Part shown: positions 2,919-39,840 of the stretch, piece by piece | Numbering within the stretch: the stretch's first letter is position 1 | Layout: every line of letters starts with the position of its first letter | Source of the DNA: Bacteroidota bacterium | GTDB lineage: Bacteria > Bacteroidota > Bacteroidia > AKYH767-A > OLB10 | Assembly (NCBI GenBank): GCA_024643795.1 | Contig: JAHEMF010000002.1 | Coordinates: 14 to 64,013 of the forward strand | Reading direction: 5' to 3' | DNA: 64,000 nucleotides | Notes under the pieces: model-generated | The model's database searches: none | What the model was told of the DNA's origin: nothing | Seen by the model: the letters and a program-made list of their open reading frames with translations, nothing else | Translations under genes and position numbers: made by a program

Positions 2919-3392
2919 ATGAAAGATATCAGGATACGAAAAGGAACTACGGAAGATCTTACTGCAGTGCTGGAGTTGATCAGAGAACTTGCCGAGTTTG
3001 AAAAGGCCCCGGAAGAGGTTACTAATAATGTTGCAGCAATGATCGAAGACTTTACAGGAAGTTCTCCTGTATTTAAACTACTGGTTGCTACAAAGGAGGA
3101 TGAGTTGGTAGGAATGGCAATTTATTTCACTAAATATTCTACCTGGAAAGGTAAAGGTGTTTATTTGGATGATATTGTTGTTAAAGAGCAGTATAGAAGA
3201 AAAGGAATAGGCAAACAATTATTTGATGCTCTGGTGCGAGAATCAAAAGTACTTGGTGCTAAACAATTGCATTGGCAGGTGCTCGACTGGAATTCTGATG
3301 CGATCGATTTTTATAAAAAGTATGATGCAGAATTAGATTCAGAGTGGATCAATTGTAAACTTACAGAAGAGCAAATTAATAATTTTAAATGA
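2919..3392 (+). CDS. GNAT N-acetyltransferase, SSAT/diamine acetyltransferase-like
   Basis: IRELAEFEK, YSTWKGKGVYLDDIVV, RRKGIG and WQVLDWN..AIDFY motifs; TAATTTTG promoter at 2904-2911. Confidence 0.85.
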   Translation: MKDIRIRKGTTEDLTAVLELIRELAEFEKAPEEVTNNVAAMIEDFTGSSPVFKLLVATKEDELVGMAIYFTKYSTWKGKGVYLDDIVVKEQYRRKGIGKQLFDALVRESKVLGAKQLHWQVLDWNSDAIDFYKKYDAELDSEWINCKLTEEQINNFK

Positions 3393-32344: not shown

Positions 32345-32770
32345 TTAAGCAGCAGCTTGTCCCCTGCCCAGCCACCAACCGATAACTCCGCCAACAACGG
32401 CTCCGAATACGGCATTGAGCAAAACATCAACAGCTATAATAGTATAATTTGTAAACATTTCTGATTGAGCTTGCAACATCAAATTCATGCCCAGAAACAT
32501 CAGAATGCAAATCATAGCACCGCATTTAGCACCCTCTTTAAAATCACGAATATTCATTTGATCAAATAAGTAAGCAAGCATCAAAGACCAAAAGATTTGG
32601 GCAACAAAGATCATCCAGAGAATAGGCTCTGGTCTGGAAATCTCATTTACAAACAGCTCGTTCATATTACTTTCATAGTAGTCCATGGTCAACATTCCCC
32701 ATAAGACCCAACCCGCTAAGAAAGCAACAACTGCACCAATAAGAGTGGCAACAAGTACTTGTGTTTTCAT
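32345..32770 (-). CDS. Four-TM membrane protein, DUF1761-like
   Basis: Four hydrophobic helices; GAVVAFLAGWVLWG motif. Confidence 0.6.
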   Translation of the reverse strand: MKTQVLVATLIGAVVAFLAGWVLWGMLTMDYYESNMNELFVNEISRPEPILWMIFVAQIFWSLMLAYLFDQMNIRDFKEGAKCGAMICILMFLGMNLMLQAQSEMFTNYTIIAVDVLLNAVFGAVVGGVIGWWLGRGQAAA

Positions 32771-32901
32771 GATATTTTGGTTTTGGTTTAATTGAAAGTA
32801 AAAAGGAATACGCCAAATTAATTACCATAGGTAAATGACTTATACACATTTGGATAAACAAACTTGGTTAACCAATCACAAGTAATTGAAAATCAGCTTA
32901 T

Positions 32902-33402
32902 TTAAATCCAACTACAAATAATACCCCCCATTATGATCATACTCAATGTCCAATAACCGGTATTGATCCAGATATATTTCCATCCCTTTCTTTCAAATAG
33001 TGCATTAATGCTGATAACAGGTAAAACCAATAAAACCGATGAGATAAACCCATGTAAAGCACCATGCTTGAATGTTCTGAAGTTGCTCCCATATTTTAAC
33101 ATAAATTCATCTACATAATTCTGAATTGCTGAACCGCTTTCACCAAACCCTGGCTCATTCAACAGAATTGAGTAAAAGTGAGATTGATGTATTACCAGAA
33201 GGCTGGTTCCAAGCGAAAATAGTAGGCTCATTATAAAGGTCAATCCAAAGATCAGAGGCATGTTTGCCCCTTTTGCCTTTTCTTCGGTCATGCCAGAGGC
33301 ATTCATCCATGCAGTGCCACATACTTTTGGGTTGTACCAGATCATACCGGTAAGCAGTGGGATCAGGGCAGCCACCAGGATCGCCAGATAATTCATTTCC
33401 AT
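32902..33402 (-). CDS. DUF1761 family membrane protein
   Basis: NYLAILVAAL, GMIWYNPK..GTAWM, FRTFKHGALHG and LFERKGWKYIWIN.GYW motifs. Confidence 0.8.
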   Translation of the reverse strand: MEMNYLAILVAALIPLLTGMIWYNPKVCGTAWMNASGMTEEKAKGANMPLIFGLTFIMSLLFSLGTSLLVIHQSHFYSILLNEPGFGESGSAIQNYVDEFMLKYGSNFRTFKHGALHGFISSVLLVLPVISINALFERKGWKYIWINTGYWTLSMIIMGGIICSWI

Positions 33403-34487: not shown

Positions 34488-34551
34488 AATAAAAAAGGCG
34501 TCCCAAAGGACGCCTTTCTGAGTAAAATAAATTTCAGTTTACCGAGCTCAG
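34488..34551. repeat. 64-bp direct repeat, copy 1 (contains the terminator of 34548..37712)
   Basis: 55/64 identical to 37912..37975 by manual ungapped alignment. Confidence 0.85.
34491..34517 (-). terminator. Intrinsic terminator of the 1054-aa T9SS cargo gene
   Basis: AAAAAA-GGCGTCC-CAAA-GGACGCC-TTT; U tract on the minus strand. Confidence 0.85.
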
Positions 34552-37500
34552 TTGACTTCTCTGAGCAATTTCACGGTACCCTGGTATGATTTTCCGCTCT
34601 GCAGATTCAGGGAGTAGAAGTAAGTTCCGTCAGGCAGATCATCACCGTCCCAGTTATTCTGGTAGTTTCCTGACTCATACACGATGTTACCCCATCGGTT
34701 GAATATTTTGAGTGCGCTGTTAGGATTAGCCTCTAGATTTTTGATGAAGAACACATCATTCTTGTTGTCACCATTACCTGGGGTAAATATGTTAGGGATC
34801 ACCACATCACAAGGTGAGATGGTAACATCATCCTGTCCTCGGCATCCGTTAGGATCGGTAACTTCTACGGTATATACTCCTGAAGCAGCAGGGGTGATGG
34901 TTTGTCCGGTTTCACTGATGATGCTGCCGTTGAGTGACCACACGTAGGAGCTACCTGCATTACCGGCATCCAGTGAAGGAGGCGTAGATCCGTCACCGCA
35001 AATGAGCTGGTTCTCACCCAGCTCAACCACCGGATTGGGGTTCACGGTAAGTGAGAGACTTGAAGAGCCATCGCAACCGTCGTTATTGGTCACGGTTACA
35101 TCATAGGTGCCTGTAGAACTAACAGTGATGGTAGCGGTAGTTTCACCGGTACTCCATTGGTAGGAGTTAAATCCGGCACCGGCATCGAACACAGAGTTCT
35201 CACCGTCACAGATATCGGTATCACCGGTCACCACCGGAGCAGGAGCCGTAAGGTTCACCGCATTAGCAGTGCCTGTACCGTCGCAGGTAGCACCAGATAT
35301 GGTAACAGTAACGGTATAGGTACCTGCTGAGGTTGGTGTAATGGTTTGAGTGGTTTCACCGGTACTCCACAGATAATTTGATCCGGGGTTTCCGGCATCC
35401 AGAGGAGCAAAGGCATCACCCGGACAAGCGAACACATCGGTAATGGAAACCGAAGGAGAAGCGATCACACTGATCTGCATGCTATCGGTACCCTGGCAAC
35501 CAGATAGGGTGGTCACCTGTACTGTATAGACTCCCGGAGCGTTCAGTCCCGGCTGATAGGTCTGGCTGTTGGCTCCTGAAATAGGCTGGCCGTTGAGCAA
35601 CCACACATACGATGAGTTGGGAACGTTGGCCACCAATGCTGTAGGTGAATCATTATCACAAATGGTCTGGTCCGGGCCGATGGTTACCACCAGCTGAGCA
35701 GCAATGCTGATAGCTACCGAGTCGGTACCCACACAGTTGGTACCTGAAGTAGATACTACCACGGAATAGTTACCAGCCTGAGTAGGCTGATAGAACTGAC
35801 CAGTAGCGTTAGGTATAGCTACACCGCTATTGAACCACTGGAAGTTGGCACCGGAGTTACCAGCGTTAAGCGGCGGGATAGGGTCGGTGTTACATAAGCT
35901 CAGGTCAGGCCCCAGGTTAACAACAGGAGACTGTTCAATGAGTACTTCAACAGTATCCGTACCGAAACAGGCAGGTGATGCTGTAACGGTAACCACATAG
36001 GTACCGGATTGAGAAGCAGTGATGGTTTGATTGGTTTCGTTAGGCAGGATGTTGCCGTTTAACGCCCATATATAAGTGAAGTTAGAAAGTCCGGCATCAA
36101 GAACAGGAGTAGGGTCGGTATCGCACACAGCAATATCAGGACCGGCACTCACGATAAGGTTGTTGATGATATTAAGCACCGCCAGAGTATCACCGGCGTT
36201 GATATAGGTTCCGCAATCGTTCGTAAATGTGTTGTTGTCGGTACCATTTTGAACAATGAGGTACACCGGAGTAGCTGGAGAAATGTTGCTACCCACACTG
36301 AAGGTGATGGAGTTTGAAACGCCGTTACCACCGGGGCAGTTCGTCACTGCAGTTACCGGATACTGGGTTCCGTTGGCATCCACCAAGAAGAATTCGGATC
36401 CGCCACCCGATAAGGTATTGCATTGCACATTGTACTGGAAGGTTACAGTAATATCGTTGAAGGTACATCCTACATTGAGCACCTCAGTATCAAAGATACC
36501 TGGATCGATAACCTCGTAACCTAGTGAATCAAATTCAGGCATCTCAACACCACATTCACTCAGGAATGTGTTGCCGTCGAACCCGGTCTTGGTAAAGGCA
36601 TAAGTTATACCTGCAGTGAGCGGATAAAATACGGTTACCAGAATGCTGTCGGTTTGTCCGTTGGTACAATTGATAGGCACAGCATTAAGAACAGGATTAG
36701 GTGTTCCCTGAGGTGTTACCACACGTATATCGGTAGGCACAATGGAAGCACACTGAACAGGATCCTGAAGTACCAGAATGAAAGTAGTGTCGGCGCATGA
36801 AGCCGTATAGAACTGGGTAGGATTACCCTGTGGATCGGTAGGAGGGGTCCATGCCGGAGCAGAACCGATACATCCACCCACTATGTTGATTTGAATATCT
36901 CTCTTTACATGACCGATTTTAAATCCATTGCGAAACTCTTCGCACAGTACGGCTATAACGCCCACCTCTATTTGAGAAGGTATGAAGTTGATGGTACCTG
37001 TTTGTGGGTCAATAGAAACCGGACCGTTAGTTGCTACAGGCTGTAAACCGCTGTAGCCTGGCTGATATTGCAATGAAGTAGCACCGGGATTACCCTGAGC
37101 ATCCACCAGTGAATATACCAGTGAGTCTCCGTCAATATCGGTAGCACCCTGGTTGTAGAAGAACTGATTACCTACACAGAATTGAGTTACCGGAATGTTT
37201 GAGAATACCGGTGAGCTGTTTGTAGGTGCATTTAAATTATCCAGGAAACTGGTCACATACATATCATCTCCACCCGGACCAACAATAGTTGTGATCTGAG
37301 CATTACGGCAACATAATGAAAATACAAACTGCCAGTCAGAACAGGCAACCGGTAAATTAACGGTTCCCTGATAGATCCATTCTTGCACTCCGTACCCTGA
37401 TCCTCCATTACAAGTAGTTGTTACCGGAGGTAGACATGGCGATGGCGGGATCGGCTGCCCGGTTCCAGGAATGGCTTGCAGGGTAATATTTCCTCCTGCC

Positions 37501-37712
37501 GCACAGCTGGAGCTATAATTCACTGTAGTGCTGGTTGGAGCTGTAATACCGTCACAGTCTCTGTAAAACCTTAAGGTTACTAGGTATTGGTTAGGACCTA
37601 TGTATTCATATGTAACGTCGGCACCTACGCCATGAGAGGCAAATGCCTCGTCAGCAGGTAGTGCAAATACTGCAACCAGGGCTGTCACAAGGATCGATAA
37701 TAGCTTTTTCAT
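34548..37712 (-). CDS. Large secreted T9SS cargo/adhesin with six Cys-containing Ig-like repeats and a type B (gliding motility-associated) C-terminal domain
   Basis: Signal peptide (AFA-SH); N-terminal SHGVGAD..Y..LRFYRDC domain; six ~75-80 aa repeats (LGPD..C..LDAG..Y.W..GTY.V.VT..C.GTD); CTD IPNIFTPGNGDNKNDVF..IFNRWG..WDG..GTYFY..GTVKLLR. Confidence 0.88.
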   Translation of the reverse strand: MKKLLSILVTALVAVFALPADEAFASHGVGADVTYEYIGPNQYLVTLRFYRDCDGITAPTSTTVNYSSSCAAGGNITLQAIPGTGQPIPPSPCLPPVTTTCNGGSGYGVQEWIYQGTVNLPVACSDWQFVFSLCCRNAQITTIVGPGGDDMYVTSFLDNLNAPTNSSPVFSNIPVTQFCVGNQFFYNQGATDIDGDSLVYSLVDAQGNPGATSLQYQPGYSGLQPVATNGPVSIDPQTGTINFIPSQIEVGVIAVLCEEFRNGFKIGHVKRDIQINIVGGCIGSAPAWTPPTDPQGNPTQFYTASCADTTFILVLQDPVQCASIVPTDIRVVTPQGTPNPVLNAVPINCTNGQTDSILVTVFYPLTAGITYAFTKTGFDGNTFLSECGVEMPEFDSLGYEVIDPGIFDTEVLNVGCTFNDITVTFQYNVQCNTLSGGGSEFFLVDANGTQYPVTAVTNCPGGNGVSNSITFSVGSNISPATPVYLIVQNGTDNNTFTNDCGTYINAGDTLAVLNIINNLIVSAGPDIAVCDTDPTPVLDAGLSNFTYIWALNGNILPNETNQTITASQSGTYVVTVTASPACFGTDTVEVLIEQSPVVNLGPDLSLCNTDPIPPLNAGNSGANFQWFNSGVAIPNATGQFYQPTQAGNYSVVVSTSGTNCVGTDSVAISIAAQLVVTIGPDQTICDNDSPTALVANVPNSSYVWLLNGQPISGANSQTYQPGLNAPGVYTVQVTTLSGCQGTDSMQISVIASPSVSITDVFACPGDAFAPLDAGNPGSNYLWSTGETTQTITPTSAGTYTVTVTISGATCDGTGTANAVNLTAPAPVVTGDTDICDGENSVFDAGAGFNSYQWSTGETTATITVSSTGTYDVTVTNNDGCDGSSSLSLTVNPNPVVELGENQLICGDGSTPPSLDAGNAGSSYVWSLNGSIISETGQTITPAASGVYTVEVTDPNGCRGQDDVTISPCDVVIPNIFTPGNGDNKNDVFFIKNLEANPNSALKIFNRWGNIVYESGNYQNNWDGDDLPDGTYFYSLNLQSGKSYQGTVKLLREVN

Positions 37713-37768
37713 TTTTTCGTTTTGGTTTTTAAGATCTTGGGATAGTTATAATGTATTTCCTTTTGTTA

Positions 37769-37798
37769 AAAGACGATTTGAAGCGCATTCTAGTTGCA
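37769..37798 (-). promoter_or_regulatory. ECF sigma-type promoter of the T9SS cargo gene
   Basis: Minus strand TGCAAC (37798-37793), 17-nt spacer, CGTCTTT; same motif and spacing as upstream of the ECF gene. Confidence 0.75.
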
Positions 37799-37911
37799 GC
37801 TGCAGAAGATAAAAAGGAAATATTATATAAGTATAAAGTGTTTATATTCAGTTAGTTAAATAGATTTAGCCTGAAAAAGGTGTTTTAAAGTCCTCAAATT
37901 CAGGCCATAAA

Positions 37912-37975
37912 AATAAAAAAGACGTCCCAAAGGACGTCTTTTTAAGCAAAATAAATTTCAGATTACAGGGGTCAG
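37912..37975. repeat. 64-bp direct repeat, copy 2
   Basis: 55/64 identical to 34488..34551. Confidence 0.85.
37915..37943 (-). terminator. Intrinsic terminator of the sigma/anti-sigma operon
   Basis: AAAAAA-GACGTCC-CAAA-GGACGTC-TTTTT. Confidence 0.85.
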
Positions 37976-38022
37976 CGGATCTGATGGTCCCTCATAAATG
38001 ATCCCCGGCTGATATCTTAGTT

Positions 38023-39219
38023 TCAACGCATGAGTTTCAGAGTTCCTTTATGATTGTGAACCTTACCGTCATTTCCTGTAGCATATATCACATAAAAGTA
38101 AGTTTCCTTAGGAGCTGCTTCGCCATTACCAAGGTTGCCATTCCATCCAAGTTCAGGATCAGTGAAACGTGCTACCTGCTTACCTCTACGGTCATAAATT
38201 GCCACATCAACTGAGGCTAGTTGCTCAGACCTGATGGTGAAAATATCATTGATACCATCTCCATTTGGCGTAAATACGTTAGGAATGAAATTTTTTAGAA
38301 AATCATCTTCTTCAACTGTAACCAACACGGGTTCTTTATGTGTATTTCCATCCCCATCTTTGAAACTTGCCCATGCAGTATATGTGCCGGGTATCTCATA
38401 TTCATGACTTATTGCTGAACCACCAAATCCTGATGCTCCATCTCCGAACTCCCAAACAACTTCTCCATGGAAGGCAGGAACTTTAAGGTCAACACCCAAA
38501 GGTGCCACACCCTTAACAGGATCTGCAACCAACTCAAATTGCTTCAGCTGAGTTGCTGATTTATCAGGAATATTTTCACGTGTTACTTGACCTGGAGTTT
38601 GCTTTTGTTGTGTGGGACTATTTTCAACTACAGTTTTTTCAGCATGAGCTAATAATACAGGATCACTCTGATCAGTAGCCCTTTGGTTTCCTGACTGAGT
38701 TACACTTACCGGTGCTGAAGGATTAAGCTTCTGAACAGGAGTGTTATTTTTTGCGCGTTTCTGAACAGCTGAATTATTTTCAACAGCTGAACTATTACTT
38801 GAATGGGATGTATTCTCCTCAGATCGGTTTTCCTGCAAATCAGATTCTTCACCCATCGACATGGCAGTTGTATTGGATGGTTCCATCTGCTGCGAGGGAT
38901 CTTCATAAATATTACCGGCTTGCTCAGTGCTTTGACTGTTCTGAACATTTGCAGATTCTTCCTCTTTTGGAGATGCGAAGTACAGTACGGAAGCAGTAAC
39001 AGCCACGATAGCTGCACCTCCCCATACACCCAGCCCAAGCCCTCCTTTGGCACCACTGGCTGCTGATGTTACACCACCTGAATTCCCTGAAGGGGATGAC
39101 GGTGCTGAAGGTGTTGGGATTTGACTCTTGATCGAATCCCAAAGTTCAGGCCTGACCGGCTCTTCATAACCGTTGAAGGTGTCCCTGAATAAATTTTCTA
39201 TGTTTTCTTTCGGTTCCAC
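38023..39219 (-). CDS. Putative membrane anti-sigma factor with a PKD domain and a type B T9SS C-terminal domain
   Basis: No signal peptide; N-terminal IENLFRDTFNGYEEPVRPELWDSI motif; TM helix aa ~61-83; S/N/Q/E/T-rich linker aa ~84-225; PKD (WEFGDG..SHEY..PGTY); CTD IPNVFTPNGDGINDIF..IYDRRG..WNG..TYFY..KGTLKLMR; GTG start abuts the sigma TAA. Confidence 0.8.
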   Translation of the reverse strand: MEPKENIENLFRDTFNGYEEPVRPELWDSIKSQIPTPSAPSSPSGNSGGVTSAASGAKGGLGLGVWGGAAIVAVTASVLYFASPKEEESANVQNSQSTEQAGNIYEDPSQQMEPSNTTAMSMGEESDLQENRSEENTSHSSNSSAVENNSAVQKRAKNNTPVQKLNPSAPVSVTQSGNQRATDQSDPVLLAHAEKTVVENSPTQQKQTPGQVTRENIPDKSATQLKQFELVADPVKGVAPLGVDLKVPAFHGEVVWEFGDGASGFGGSAISHEYEIPGTYTAWASFKDGDGNTHKEPVLVTVEEDDFLKNFIPNVFTPNGDGINDIFTIRSEQLASVDVAIYDRRGKQVARFTDPELGWNGNLGNGEAAPKETYFYVIYATGNDGKVHNHKGTLKLMR

Positions 39220-39759
39220 TTAAACCAATTTTTCTGTTGTTTCTACCAATTTCTGCAAATAAACCCTTGCCCGTGAATATTGTGATTTTGAGGTACTCTC
39301 AGAGATTCCTAGCATTGAAGCTATCTCTTTGTGGGCAAAACCCTCTACTGCATATAAATTAAATACTGTTCTGAATCCTGGTGGCATGGTTCTCATCAAT
39401 TTGAGAAGATCTTTGGCATTCATAGACTCAATTGTATGATCTTCTGCAAATGCCTCTGCACTGGCCACTTCAAGATCTATCATCTTGCCGAACGATTTAT
39501 TCTTCCTTATCTGATCCAATGCGGTATTTACCATAACTCTTCGTATCCATCCTTCCAATGACCCTTCTCCTTTGAAACTGCTGATCCTGAAAAAGACCTT
39601 TATAAAGCCCTCCTGCAGGATATCTTCAGCCTCATCAGATGAACTTGCGTATCGGGCGCATACACCAAGCATCCGGCCGCTGAAGCGGTCGAATAATTGT
39701 TTTTGTGCCTTAGGATCGCCTTCACGGCAACCCTTTGCGAGTTCTTCATCAGGTATCAT
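39220..39759 (-). CDS. ECF RNA polymerase sigma factor (probably ECF21-like)
   Basis: Region 2 AEDILQEGFIKVF and GSLEGWIRRVMVNTALD; region 4 RTVFNLYAVEGFAHKEIASMLGISESTSKSQYSRAR. Confidence 0.93.
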   Translation of the reverse strand: MIPDEELAKGCREGDPKAQKQLFDRFSGRMLGVCARYASSSDEAEDILQEGFIKVFFRISSFKGEGSLEGWIRRVMVNTALDQIRKNKSFGKMIDLEVASAEAFAEDHTIESMNAKDLLKLMRTMPPGFRTVFNLYAVEGFAHKEIASMLGISESTSKSQYSRARVYLQKLVETTEKLV

Positions 39760-39777
39760 TGGCTTGATGCTCAGGTT

Positions 39778-39807
39778 AAAGACCCATAAAAAGGCGATAG
39801 GGTTGCA
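39778..39807 (-). promoter_or_regulatory. Putative autoregulatory ECF promoter of the sigma gene
   Basis: Minus strand TGCAAC (39807-39802), 17-nt spacer, GGTCTTT. Confidence 0.75.
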
Positions 39808-39832
39808 CAGGGGTCATTTATTTTTTCTCTTA

Positions 39833-39840
39833 CAAATCTA
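39833..39840 (-). promoter_or_regulatory. Housekeeping -7 element upstream of the ECF gene (basal expression)
   Basis: TAGATTTG on the minus strand matches TAnnTTTG. Confidence 0.5.

Follow-up and report, generated by a model that had tools for sequence, protein, structure and literature searches.

Two copies of an extracytoplasmic function (ECF) promoter motif lie on the minus strand of a 64,000-nucleotide (nt) stretch of Bacteroidota bacterium contig JAHEMF010000002.1 (the whole of which is called the window here), one ahead of an ECF sigma factor gene and the other ahead of a gene for a large, adhesin-like cargo protein that uses type IX secretion (the type IX secretion system is abbreviated T9SS). 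We think it likely that both sites are promoters read by the sigma factor encoded at 39220-39759, that the gene between them (gene 2) encodes its anti-sigma factor, and that the pair belongs to a wider regulon of genes for type-B cargo. The elements concerned are listed below, with protein lengths in amino acids (aa).

39833..39840, minus strand: possible housekeeping (TAnnTTTG) box TAGATTTG, upstream of the sigma ECF promoter; unverified
39775..39807, minus strand: ECF promoter of the sigma gene; -35 TGCAAC(C) at 39807-39802, 17-nt spacer, -10 GGTCTTT(AAC) at 39784-39775
39220..39759, minus strand: ECF sigma factor, 179 aa, ECF21/Das-like; Pfam Sigma70_r2 and Sigma70_r4_2, TIGR02937
38023..39219, minus strand: gene 2, 398 aa, anti-sigma-like; CHU_C, PKD_4 and TIGR04131, N-terminal match to Dma-like partners
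37916..37943, minus strand: intrinsic terminator downstream of gene 2; stem of 12 bp with a 4-nt loop, then a T tract to about 37906
37765..37798, minus strand: ECF promoter copy of the cargo gene; -35 TGCAAC at 37798-37793, 17-nt spacer, -10 CGTCTTT(TAAC) at 37775-37765
34548..37712, minus strand: T9SS type-B cargo (gene 3), 1054 aa, adhesin-like; putative signal peptide, immunoglobulin (Ig)/PKD-like repeats, CHU_C

Read on the minus strand, the -10 block is GGTCTTTAAC at the sigma site (39784-39775) and CGTCTTTTAAC at the cargo site (37775-37765), and an extended -10, GTCTTT(T)AAC, is also common to both. The first promoter ends about 16-22 nt upstream of the sigma ATG (39759) and the second about 50-57 nt upstream of the cargo ATG (37712). 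ECF-type promoters typically have an AAC-containing -35, a -10 that includes (C)GTC and 16-17 nt between the hexamers, and both sites fit this pattern. By manual count the two spacers are identical at only 6 of 17 positions; therefore, the pair is no segmental duplication. Two matches to TGCAAC-N16-18-GTCTTT are present in the window, whereas 100 shuffles averaged 0.02 and none reached two; the window's own genome (G000, 2.88 Mb) has five matches, against one for the reversed control pattern, but these counts are post hoc because the pattern was built from both sites. The terminator between the two units folds at -16.9 kcal/mol (z = -6.6), and none of 200 shuffles was equally stable. An initial annotation of this DNA had reported the same TGCAAC-N17-(G/C)GTCTTT promoter, with unrelated 17-nt spacers, before the sigma and cargo genes, together with a terminator parting the two units, and both observations hold. 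It had also placed a housekeeping box before the sigma gene only. As to position this is correct, in that the box lies at 39840-39833 and no TANNTTTG is present on the minus strand of the 310-nt gap (37713-38022) before the cargo gene; however, TANNTTTG occurs 60 times in the window against 65.7 expected, which is chance frequency, and the box therefore carries no statistical weight.

The sigma factor consists of regions sigma-2 and sigma-4 only, in about 180 aa, as is typical of ECF (group 4) sigma factors, and scores 55.1 bits for Sigma70_r2, 52.2 bits for Sigma70_r4_2 and 93.3 bits for TIGR02937 (cut-off 42.9). It is 45-52% identical to sigma factors adjoining OMP_b-brl_2 (Dma-type) partners that have the same N-terminal motif as gene 2. 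According to the accessible part of a recent study, ECF21/Das-type sigma factors occur in Bacteroidota only, with the gene next to that of a Dma-family anti-sigma factor (PMC13088901); the 80 best loci that we collected from named genomes are all labelled Bacteroidota or come from metagenome-assembled genomes (MAGs) with doubtful labels. Homologues of the sigma factor at an expectation value (E) <= 1e-20 were found in 35 of 41 genomes, G000 included, and in G000 a single gene matches at this threshold. The gene divergent from the sigma gene is lepA.

The upstream site is widely conserved. In 25 of the 30 best-hit related loci, drawn from several families, [TA]GCAAC-N17-19-[AG]TC lies within 90 nt of the sigma start codon, always 43-55 nt ahead of it, with a spacing of N18 in 24 loci and N19 in one; the -10 reads GTCT in near relatives and CATCT in more distant ones. 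The motif is missing from five loci, namely L060 and four in which the partner gene is of a different type. In the set of 80 named-genome loci, the motif accompanies 18 of the 26 with a CHU_C gene 2 versus 7 of the 54 others, and several of the motif-less loci show, by eye, GGCAAC or GACAAC with CATCA. As far as sequence can tell, this footprint is the pattern expected of an autoregulated ECF promoter. In Arcicella gelida (L166) the same pattern yields no motif ahead of the sigma gene, and TGCAAC-N18-CATCT is found at +1353 from the sigma start, in a gap of 158 nt behind a 262-aa partner; this partner bears the N-terminal motif, and no C-terminal domain was detected in it.

The 1054-aa product of gene 3 is a T9SS type-B cargo by its sorting domain (CHU_C 80.7 bits, cut-off 27; TIGR04131 52.8 bits, cut-off 35), and it also matches PKD and Ig families. 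Its N-terminus, MKKLLSILVTALVAVFALPADEAFA, resembles a signal peptide when read by eye, and a PDB sequence search with its first 540 residues returned nothing meaningful (best E = 0.035). A CHU_C protein of 900-1270 aa occupies the gene 3 position in 19 of 22 loci examined: it is present in all 19 relatives with a CHU_C gene 2, and the three exceptions are OMP-type loci. In four of five loci checked, the gene 3' of gene 3 is MTHFR, and in the window it is likewise MTHFR and not porP/sprF. Carriers of this three-gene cassette in culture include Crocinitomix catalasitica ATCC 23190 (L108) and Fluviicola chungangensis (L118). The gap between genes 2 and 3 is short (5-66 nt) and free of the motif in 13 of 20 loci; therefore, the ancestral state was probably a single operon, with the cargo gene as its third gene and a separate cargo promoter as the derived state.

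Where the gap is long, a second copy of the motif tends to be found in it. The remaining seven loci, together with L101, make up a set of eight with a gap of at least 80 nt, and six of these contain the motif, as TGCAAC in the window, G005 and G024 and as TGCATC in G020, G021 and L101. The 310-nt gap of the window holds both the terminator and the perfect promoter copy. G005 and G024 have TGCAACC-N17-CATCT immediately past the stop codon, and the other three have an internal TGCATC-N18-GTCT. Each of the six genomes has one and the same -10 variant, either GTCT or CATCT, in its internal copy and in its own sigma promoter. In the gap of G020 (L041), the TGCATCC...GTCTTT site contains TCCTTTGGGAC, a string identical to the loop and stem of the window terminator, and in G021 the internal TGCATC sits within a small hairpin (CCTGCATCTTGCAGG). 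The terminator and the internal promoter may therefore have arisen one from the other.

Six RNA contigs of at least 99% identity, from two metatranscriptome libraries of the sample in which this DNA is also present, all fall within 34914-36281 of the cargo gene. None covers the sigma gene, gene 2 or either promoter, an absence to which no weight attaches. They are compatible with expression of the cargo; they carry neither a start nor a strand, and DNA carry-over is possible. One DNA contig has four base differences clustered at 36948-36981, in the repeat region of the cargo gene, and this clustering suggests strain microdiversity in the adhesin-like repeats. MTHFR is followed on the same strand by a tandem pair of DUF1761 paralogues, 141 aa and 166 aa long (32345-33402).

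Judging from sequence comparison and a structural model, gene 2 encodes a Dma-like anti-sigma factor that has a T9SS type-B sorting domain where Dma has its barrel. As described in the accessible parts of the Dma papers, ECF21 sigma factors are paired with anti-sigma factors in which an N-terminus of 40 residues binds the sigma factor and is joined, through one helix and a disordered tether, to an outer-membrane barrel (PMC10927553, PMC13088901). A pull-down with the first 40 residues of Dma1 recovers Das1 (PMC10927553). The GTG start codon of gene 2 overlaps the stop codon of the sigma gene. Its product comprises a charged N-terminal segment of about 37 aa, one hydrophobic helix at about residues 60-85, a low-complexity linker of about 160 aa and, at its end, a PKD domain together with a type-B sorting domain for the T9SS (CHU_C 67.4 bits, cut-off 27; TIGR04131 57.9 bits, cut-off 35). 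A hydrophobic stretch at about columns 62-90 is present in all 24 aligned gene 2 sequences, followed by 130-200 poorly conserved, low-complexity residues; on this reading of the alignment, and with a topology that is predicted, gene 2 has the single inner-membrane helix and the long tether of Dma. Since the helix lies some 60 residues in, it looks like a membrane anchor and not like a cleavable signal peptide. The eight-stranded outer-membrane barrel of Dma (OMP_b-brl) is absent from the window's gene 2 in a Pfam search, and we therefore regard the protein as a variant of Dma rather than a strict member. Across 28 relatives the C-terminus is CHU_C in 23 and OMP_b-brl_2 in five, and a PKD domain was detected in 11.

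Outside the sorting domain, the best-kept part of gene 2 is its first 37 or so residues (..IE.LFKD.F..FE..V.P..W..I). When the first 40 columns of the gene 2 alignment were compared by hhalign with the first 40 of the OMP_b-brl_2 partners, the two were matched with a probability of 95.8% (E = 8e-9); a homologue search with residues 1-60 of the window's gene 2 recovered only gene 2 itself. A model of the complex between the sigma factor and residues 1-58 of gene 2 scored 0.61, compared with 0.19 for the best control, thereby passing a mark that is attained by 58 of 80 solved complexes and by 2 of 110 mismatched pairs. The runs had at least 89% of contacts in common, the pLDDT of the partner was at least 65, and the modelled contacts place residues 7-37 of gene 2 on sigma regions 2 and 4. 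The model supports binding of the sigma factor by the N-terminal segment, although the pass may in part reflect a likeness to solved sigma/anti-sigma complexes. In a named Flavobacteriales MAG (L110), the gene 2 product, of at least 992 aa, has NIDO and PKD domains, and its N-terminus matches our local hidden Markov model of the anti-sigma motif (E = 1.9e-18); because of these different outer domains, the ectodomain of the anti-sigma family appears to be modular.

Gene 2 could instead encode an ordinary small surface protein or cargo that is merely co-expressed with the sigma factor, the latter being controlled in some other way. We consider this unlikely. No anti-sigma domain from Pfam or NCBIfam was detected in gene 2, its cytoplasmic segment has only about 37 residues and it bears a bona fide secretion tag, all of which would suit a surface protein. 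However, the overlap of its start with the sigma stop codon, the high conservation of the N-terminal segment, the homology of that segment to Dma-like partners, a complex model that passes its controls and a helix placed too far in for a cleavable signal peptide argue for the anti-sigma assignment.

We scanned G000 with a core position weight matrix (PWM) trained on the sigma promoters of 24 other genomes. The sites that matter here ranked as follows.

Rank 1, 21.9 bits: sigma promoter, ahead of the sigma operon
Rank 2, 21.6 bits: C98 site, ATGCAAC-N18-GTCTTG, with a terminator-like hairpin about 135 nt later
Rank 3: C68 site, 91 nt ahead of a CHU_C gene of 2441 aa, with another of 687 aa after it
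Rank 5: C100 site, TGCATCC-N17-CGTCTTTAAC, ahead of a 1961-aa choice-of-anchor-L / CHU_C gene
Rank 15: C51 site, ahead of a type-A cargo gene
Rank 41, 14.5 bits: window cargo site, ahead of the 1054-aa cargo gene; seventh among intergenic, correctly oriented sites

The core PWM gave 134 matches above 12 bits, compared with 64-84 in four shuffles, a modest genome-wide excess. CHU_C genes lie downstream of three of the seven best intergenic sites other than the sigma promoter, in a genome that has 23 CHU_C genes in total and 134 type-A sorting-domain matches at E <= 0.001. The C68 protein shares its repeat architecture with the operon cargo (about 33-36% identity), and its N-terminus is 27-35% similar to those of the operon cargos of relatives. 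A C68-type site precedes six of 10 homologues that are at least 43% identical, in five other genera. For C100-type orthologues the strict pattern is found in one of eight, and in three of eight when GGCAAC is allowed; two of these three are GGGCAACC-N17-CGTCA at about -260. We also tried 19 versions of the -35 (TGCAAC and its 18 single-base changes), each with N18-19-GTC, on 35 target-side regions (8557 nt). TGCAAC was found five times, TGCATC five times and GGCAAC twice; the other 16 were absent, and all 19 combined gave one match on the opposite strand. Since only three of the 19 recur on the target side, with that single match opposite, TGCATC appears to be a genuine recurrent variant.

Three further sites from the scan concern other kinds of locus. 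The C98 site (G000:C98:22009-22214; L008 about 3015-3205, minus strand) lies just past a type-A cargo gene's terminator, upstream of gcpE/ispG, and is a candidate for the promoter of an ECF-dependent small RNA of about 150 nt; this putative RNA has neither an Rfam match nor, among 25 relatives, a DNA match, and its fold z is only -1.78. At C51 (G000:C51:3885-3915; L006, minus strand), TGCAAC-N18-GTCTTT stands 199 nt ahead of the first of two successive type-A cargo genes; the product of this first gene has 555 aa and a Por_Secre_tail domain, and it is possibly a further member of the regulon. The C31 site (rank 11) was set aside as probably due to chance, since it lies inside a small lipoprotein-like open reading frame on the opposite strand.

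The autoregulation and the drive of the neighbouring cargo gene proposed in the initial annotation agree with the footprint in 25 of 30 loci, the 19 of 19 linkage and the internal copies in five other genomes, and conservation of the motif ahead of sigma orthologues, which it had named as a check, is seen at a fixed position. The claim that the two sites define the regulon, with the adjacent adhesin as a dedicated output, is not supported, as the C68 and C100 sites (third and fifth) outrank that of the cargo (41st) and the C68 type is conserved. The initial annotation had missed that the cargo gene is probably the ancestral third gene of the operon, and that the middle gene appears to encode a Dma-like anti-sigma factor with a type-B domain.

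Several observations weigh against a regulon of type-B cargo under this sigma factor. The pattern counts are post hoc, as said above. The window cargo site reaches only rank 41 with the core PWM, and a flank-inclusive PWM, which we rejected, gave match counts like those of the shuffles and left the cargo site outside the top 45. The TGCATC copies may be weak or inactive, given that the AAC usual in an ECF -35 is missing. None of the nine PorP/SprF matches in the genome is beside the motif-linked cargo genes (C25, C68, C100), and five of them directly follow other CHU_C genes; an adjacent gene of this kind is common for type-B cargo but is not required. A first look with the sigma query gave 11 candidates in G000, the sigma factor itself included, which would allow cross-recognition if they are ECF-like. 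The type-B domain of gene 2 shows no special closeness to that of the adjoining cargo, with which it shares 34.8% identity (rank 18 of 22 by bit score; best match 38.6%), and we rejected the idea that it is a copy of the latter. Finally, it is only the sorting domain that would tie the signal to the T9SS.

Alternatively, the motifs might be real ECF promoters read by another sigma factor, or by several with overlapping specificity. TGCAAC...CGTCT-type promoters serve unrelated ECF sigma factors and are among the targets of Streptomyces coelicolor sigE, and overlap between sigM, sigW and sigX has been described, in the accessible part of the same source (PMC6767563); the 11 first-look candidates point in the same direction. 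However, the motif travels with this particular sigma factor in 25 of 30 loci, it is enriched where the partner is of the CHU_C type (18/26 vs 7/54), the -10 of the internal copy follows that of the genome's own sigma promoter in six of six genomes, and a single gene in G000 matches this sigma factor at E <= 1e-20. Recognition mainly by other sigma factors is thus very unlikely. Least likely of all is that only the sigma-proximal site is real, the cargo site being a chance or decaying sequence and the cargo gene being served by a housekeeping promoter or by read-through: the low rank of the site with either PWM and the 13 of 20 motif-free gaps would fit, but hexamers, spacing and the extended GTCTTT(T)AAC match exactly, the strong terminator (z = -6.6) speaks against read-through, no TANNTTTG box is present within the 310-nt gap, and internal copies occur in five further genomes, with the motif also kept before paralogous cargo.

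We return to the reading in which the sigma factor at 39220-39759 serves both sites. Motif identity, conservation and synteny are observed directly, and we infer the transcription starts and the dependence on this sigma factor. The upstream site would drive the sigma gene together with gene 2, which overlaps it, so that the sigma factor regulates itself, and the downstream site would drive the 1054-aa type-B cargo. In this genome the terminator would split the operon and the second promoter copy would restore sigma control of the cargo, whose level could then vary independently of the sigma/anti-sigma level. The C68 cargo, and probably the C100 cargo, would be under the same sigma factor. The first 37 or so residues of gene 2 would hold the sigma factor in the cytoplasm and its one helix would anchor the protein in the inner membrane, while the long disordered linker would put the PKD and type-B sorting domains into the periplasm. 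This arrangement builds on the observed domain architecture and N-terminal homology; the nature and the sign of the signal are proposed. By analogy with Dma1, which has been proposed to sense through its barrel, the outer end of gene 2 would report on the envelope, here on the T9SS or the anchoring machinery, and cleavage of the tether would free the sigma factor, so that type-B cargo would be made when it can be exported.

A more specific version of this idea is conceivable, and we offer it tentatively. Gene 2 might be a tethered T9SS type-B substrate that, like Dma1, spans the whole envelope and is engaged by the translocon or by a PorP-like anchor, with its N-terminus holding the sigma factor. 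Whether it is cleaved or left intact would depend on the capacity for secretion or anchoring, and it would thus act as a checkpoint that licenses the production of giant type-B adhesins. If this is true, the split operon found here would amplify adhesin output without more anti-sigma factor.

In comparison with known systems, the ECF promoter type is classical, and the sigma/anti-sigma scaffold is of the recently described ECF21/Dma kind. What we consider new is the type-B domain on the anti-sigma factor, the type-B cargo regulon, the motif with its TGCATC variant, and an operon split by a terminator and provided with a promoter again. As in ECF21/Dma, a Bacteroidota ECF sigma factor would be cotranscribed with an anti-sigma factor that has a binding segment of about 40 residues, an inner-membrane helix and a long periplasmic tether, and the binding segments are homologous; moreover, the five outlier partners and the partners of homologous sigma factors in Bacteroides-like, Chitinophagales and Cytophagales genomes are of the Dma type. 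Unlike Dma, gene 2 has PKD and type-B sorting domains instead of an eight-stranded barrel, and the regulon predicted here consists of type-B adhesin-like proteins, whereas that of Dma consists of vesiculation genes. Neither a promoter motif nor a T9SS variant appears in the accessible parts of the Dma/ECF21 literature. More generally, supplements aside, the literature that we searched described none of the elements named above as new, and it yielded neither a T9SS sorting domain on an anti-sigma factor nor an ECF21 promoter motif; the supplements of PMC7826278 and PMC10927553 may hold ECF21 logos or architectures. Little is known of the regulation of T9SS cargo genes outside Porphyromonas, and the same is true of Dma/ECF21 signals; the cassette joins both subjects. 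An inhibitor with a type-B export tag leads to a testable hypothesis of secretion-coupled gene control, and (T)GCA(A/T)C(C)-N17-C(G/A)TC(T) can be used for regulon prediction in Crocinitomicaceae-like Flavobacteriales.

RpoE/RseA and the Bacillus subtilis sigM, sigW and sigX systems are canonical ECF/anti-sigma pairs. The present system resembles autoregulated pairs of a sigma factor and a membrane anti-sigma factor with AAC-N16-17-CGTC promoters, such as Streptomyces coelicolor sigE (PMC6767563), in its two-block promoter, in the copy before the sigma operon and in its predicted small regulon of envelope proteins. It differs from them in its sensor module, in the class of its targets and in the recurrent TGCATC -35 at target sites. 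It also resembles the PorA-PorY/PorX-SigP route of Porphyromonas gingivalis, in which a T9SS sorting domain, that of PorA acting on PorY, provides a signal whose end point is an ECF sigma factor; in the accessible parts of the work on that route, the C-terminal domain of PorA is proposed to be both secretion signal and regulator, the domain is of type A on a separate soluble cargo, the route is a two-component one and the output is T9SS machinery genes (PMC7712824, PMC12152298). Here, in contrast, a type-B domain is fused to the putative anti-sigma factor and the predicted output is cargo genes. The flagellar-assembly checkpoint FlgM/sigma-28 works in a like manner: sigma-28 controls the late substrates of an export machine, and its anti-sigma factor is itself tagged for export by that machine. 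FlgM is soluble, is exported whole through a type III apparatus and has no kinship with gene 2, which is predicted to be membrane-anchored and would need to be cleaved. If the proposed checkpoint exists, it would be to the T9SS what FlgM/sigma-28 is to the flagellum, with the PorA-PorXY-SigP route condensed into one protein.

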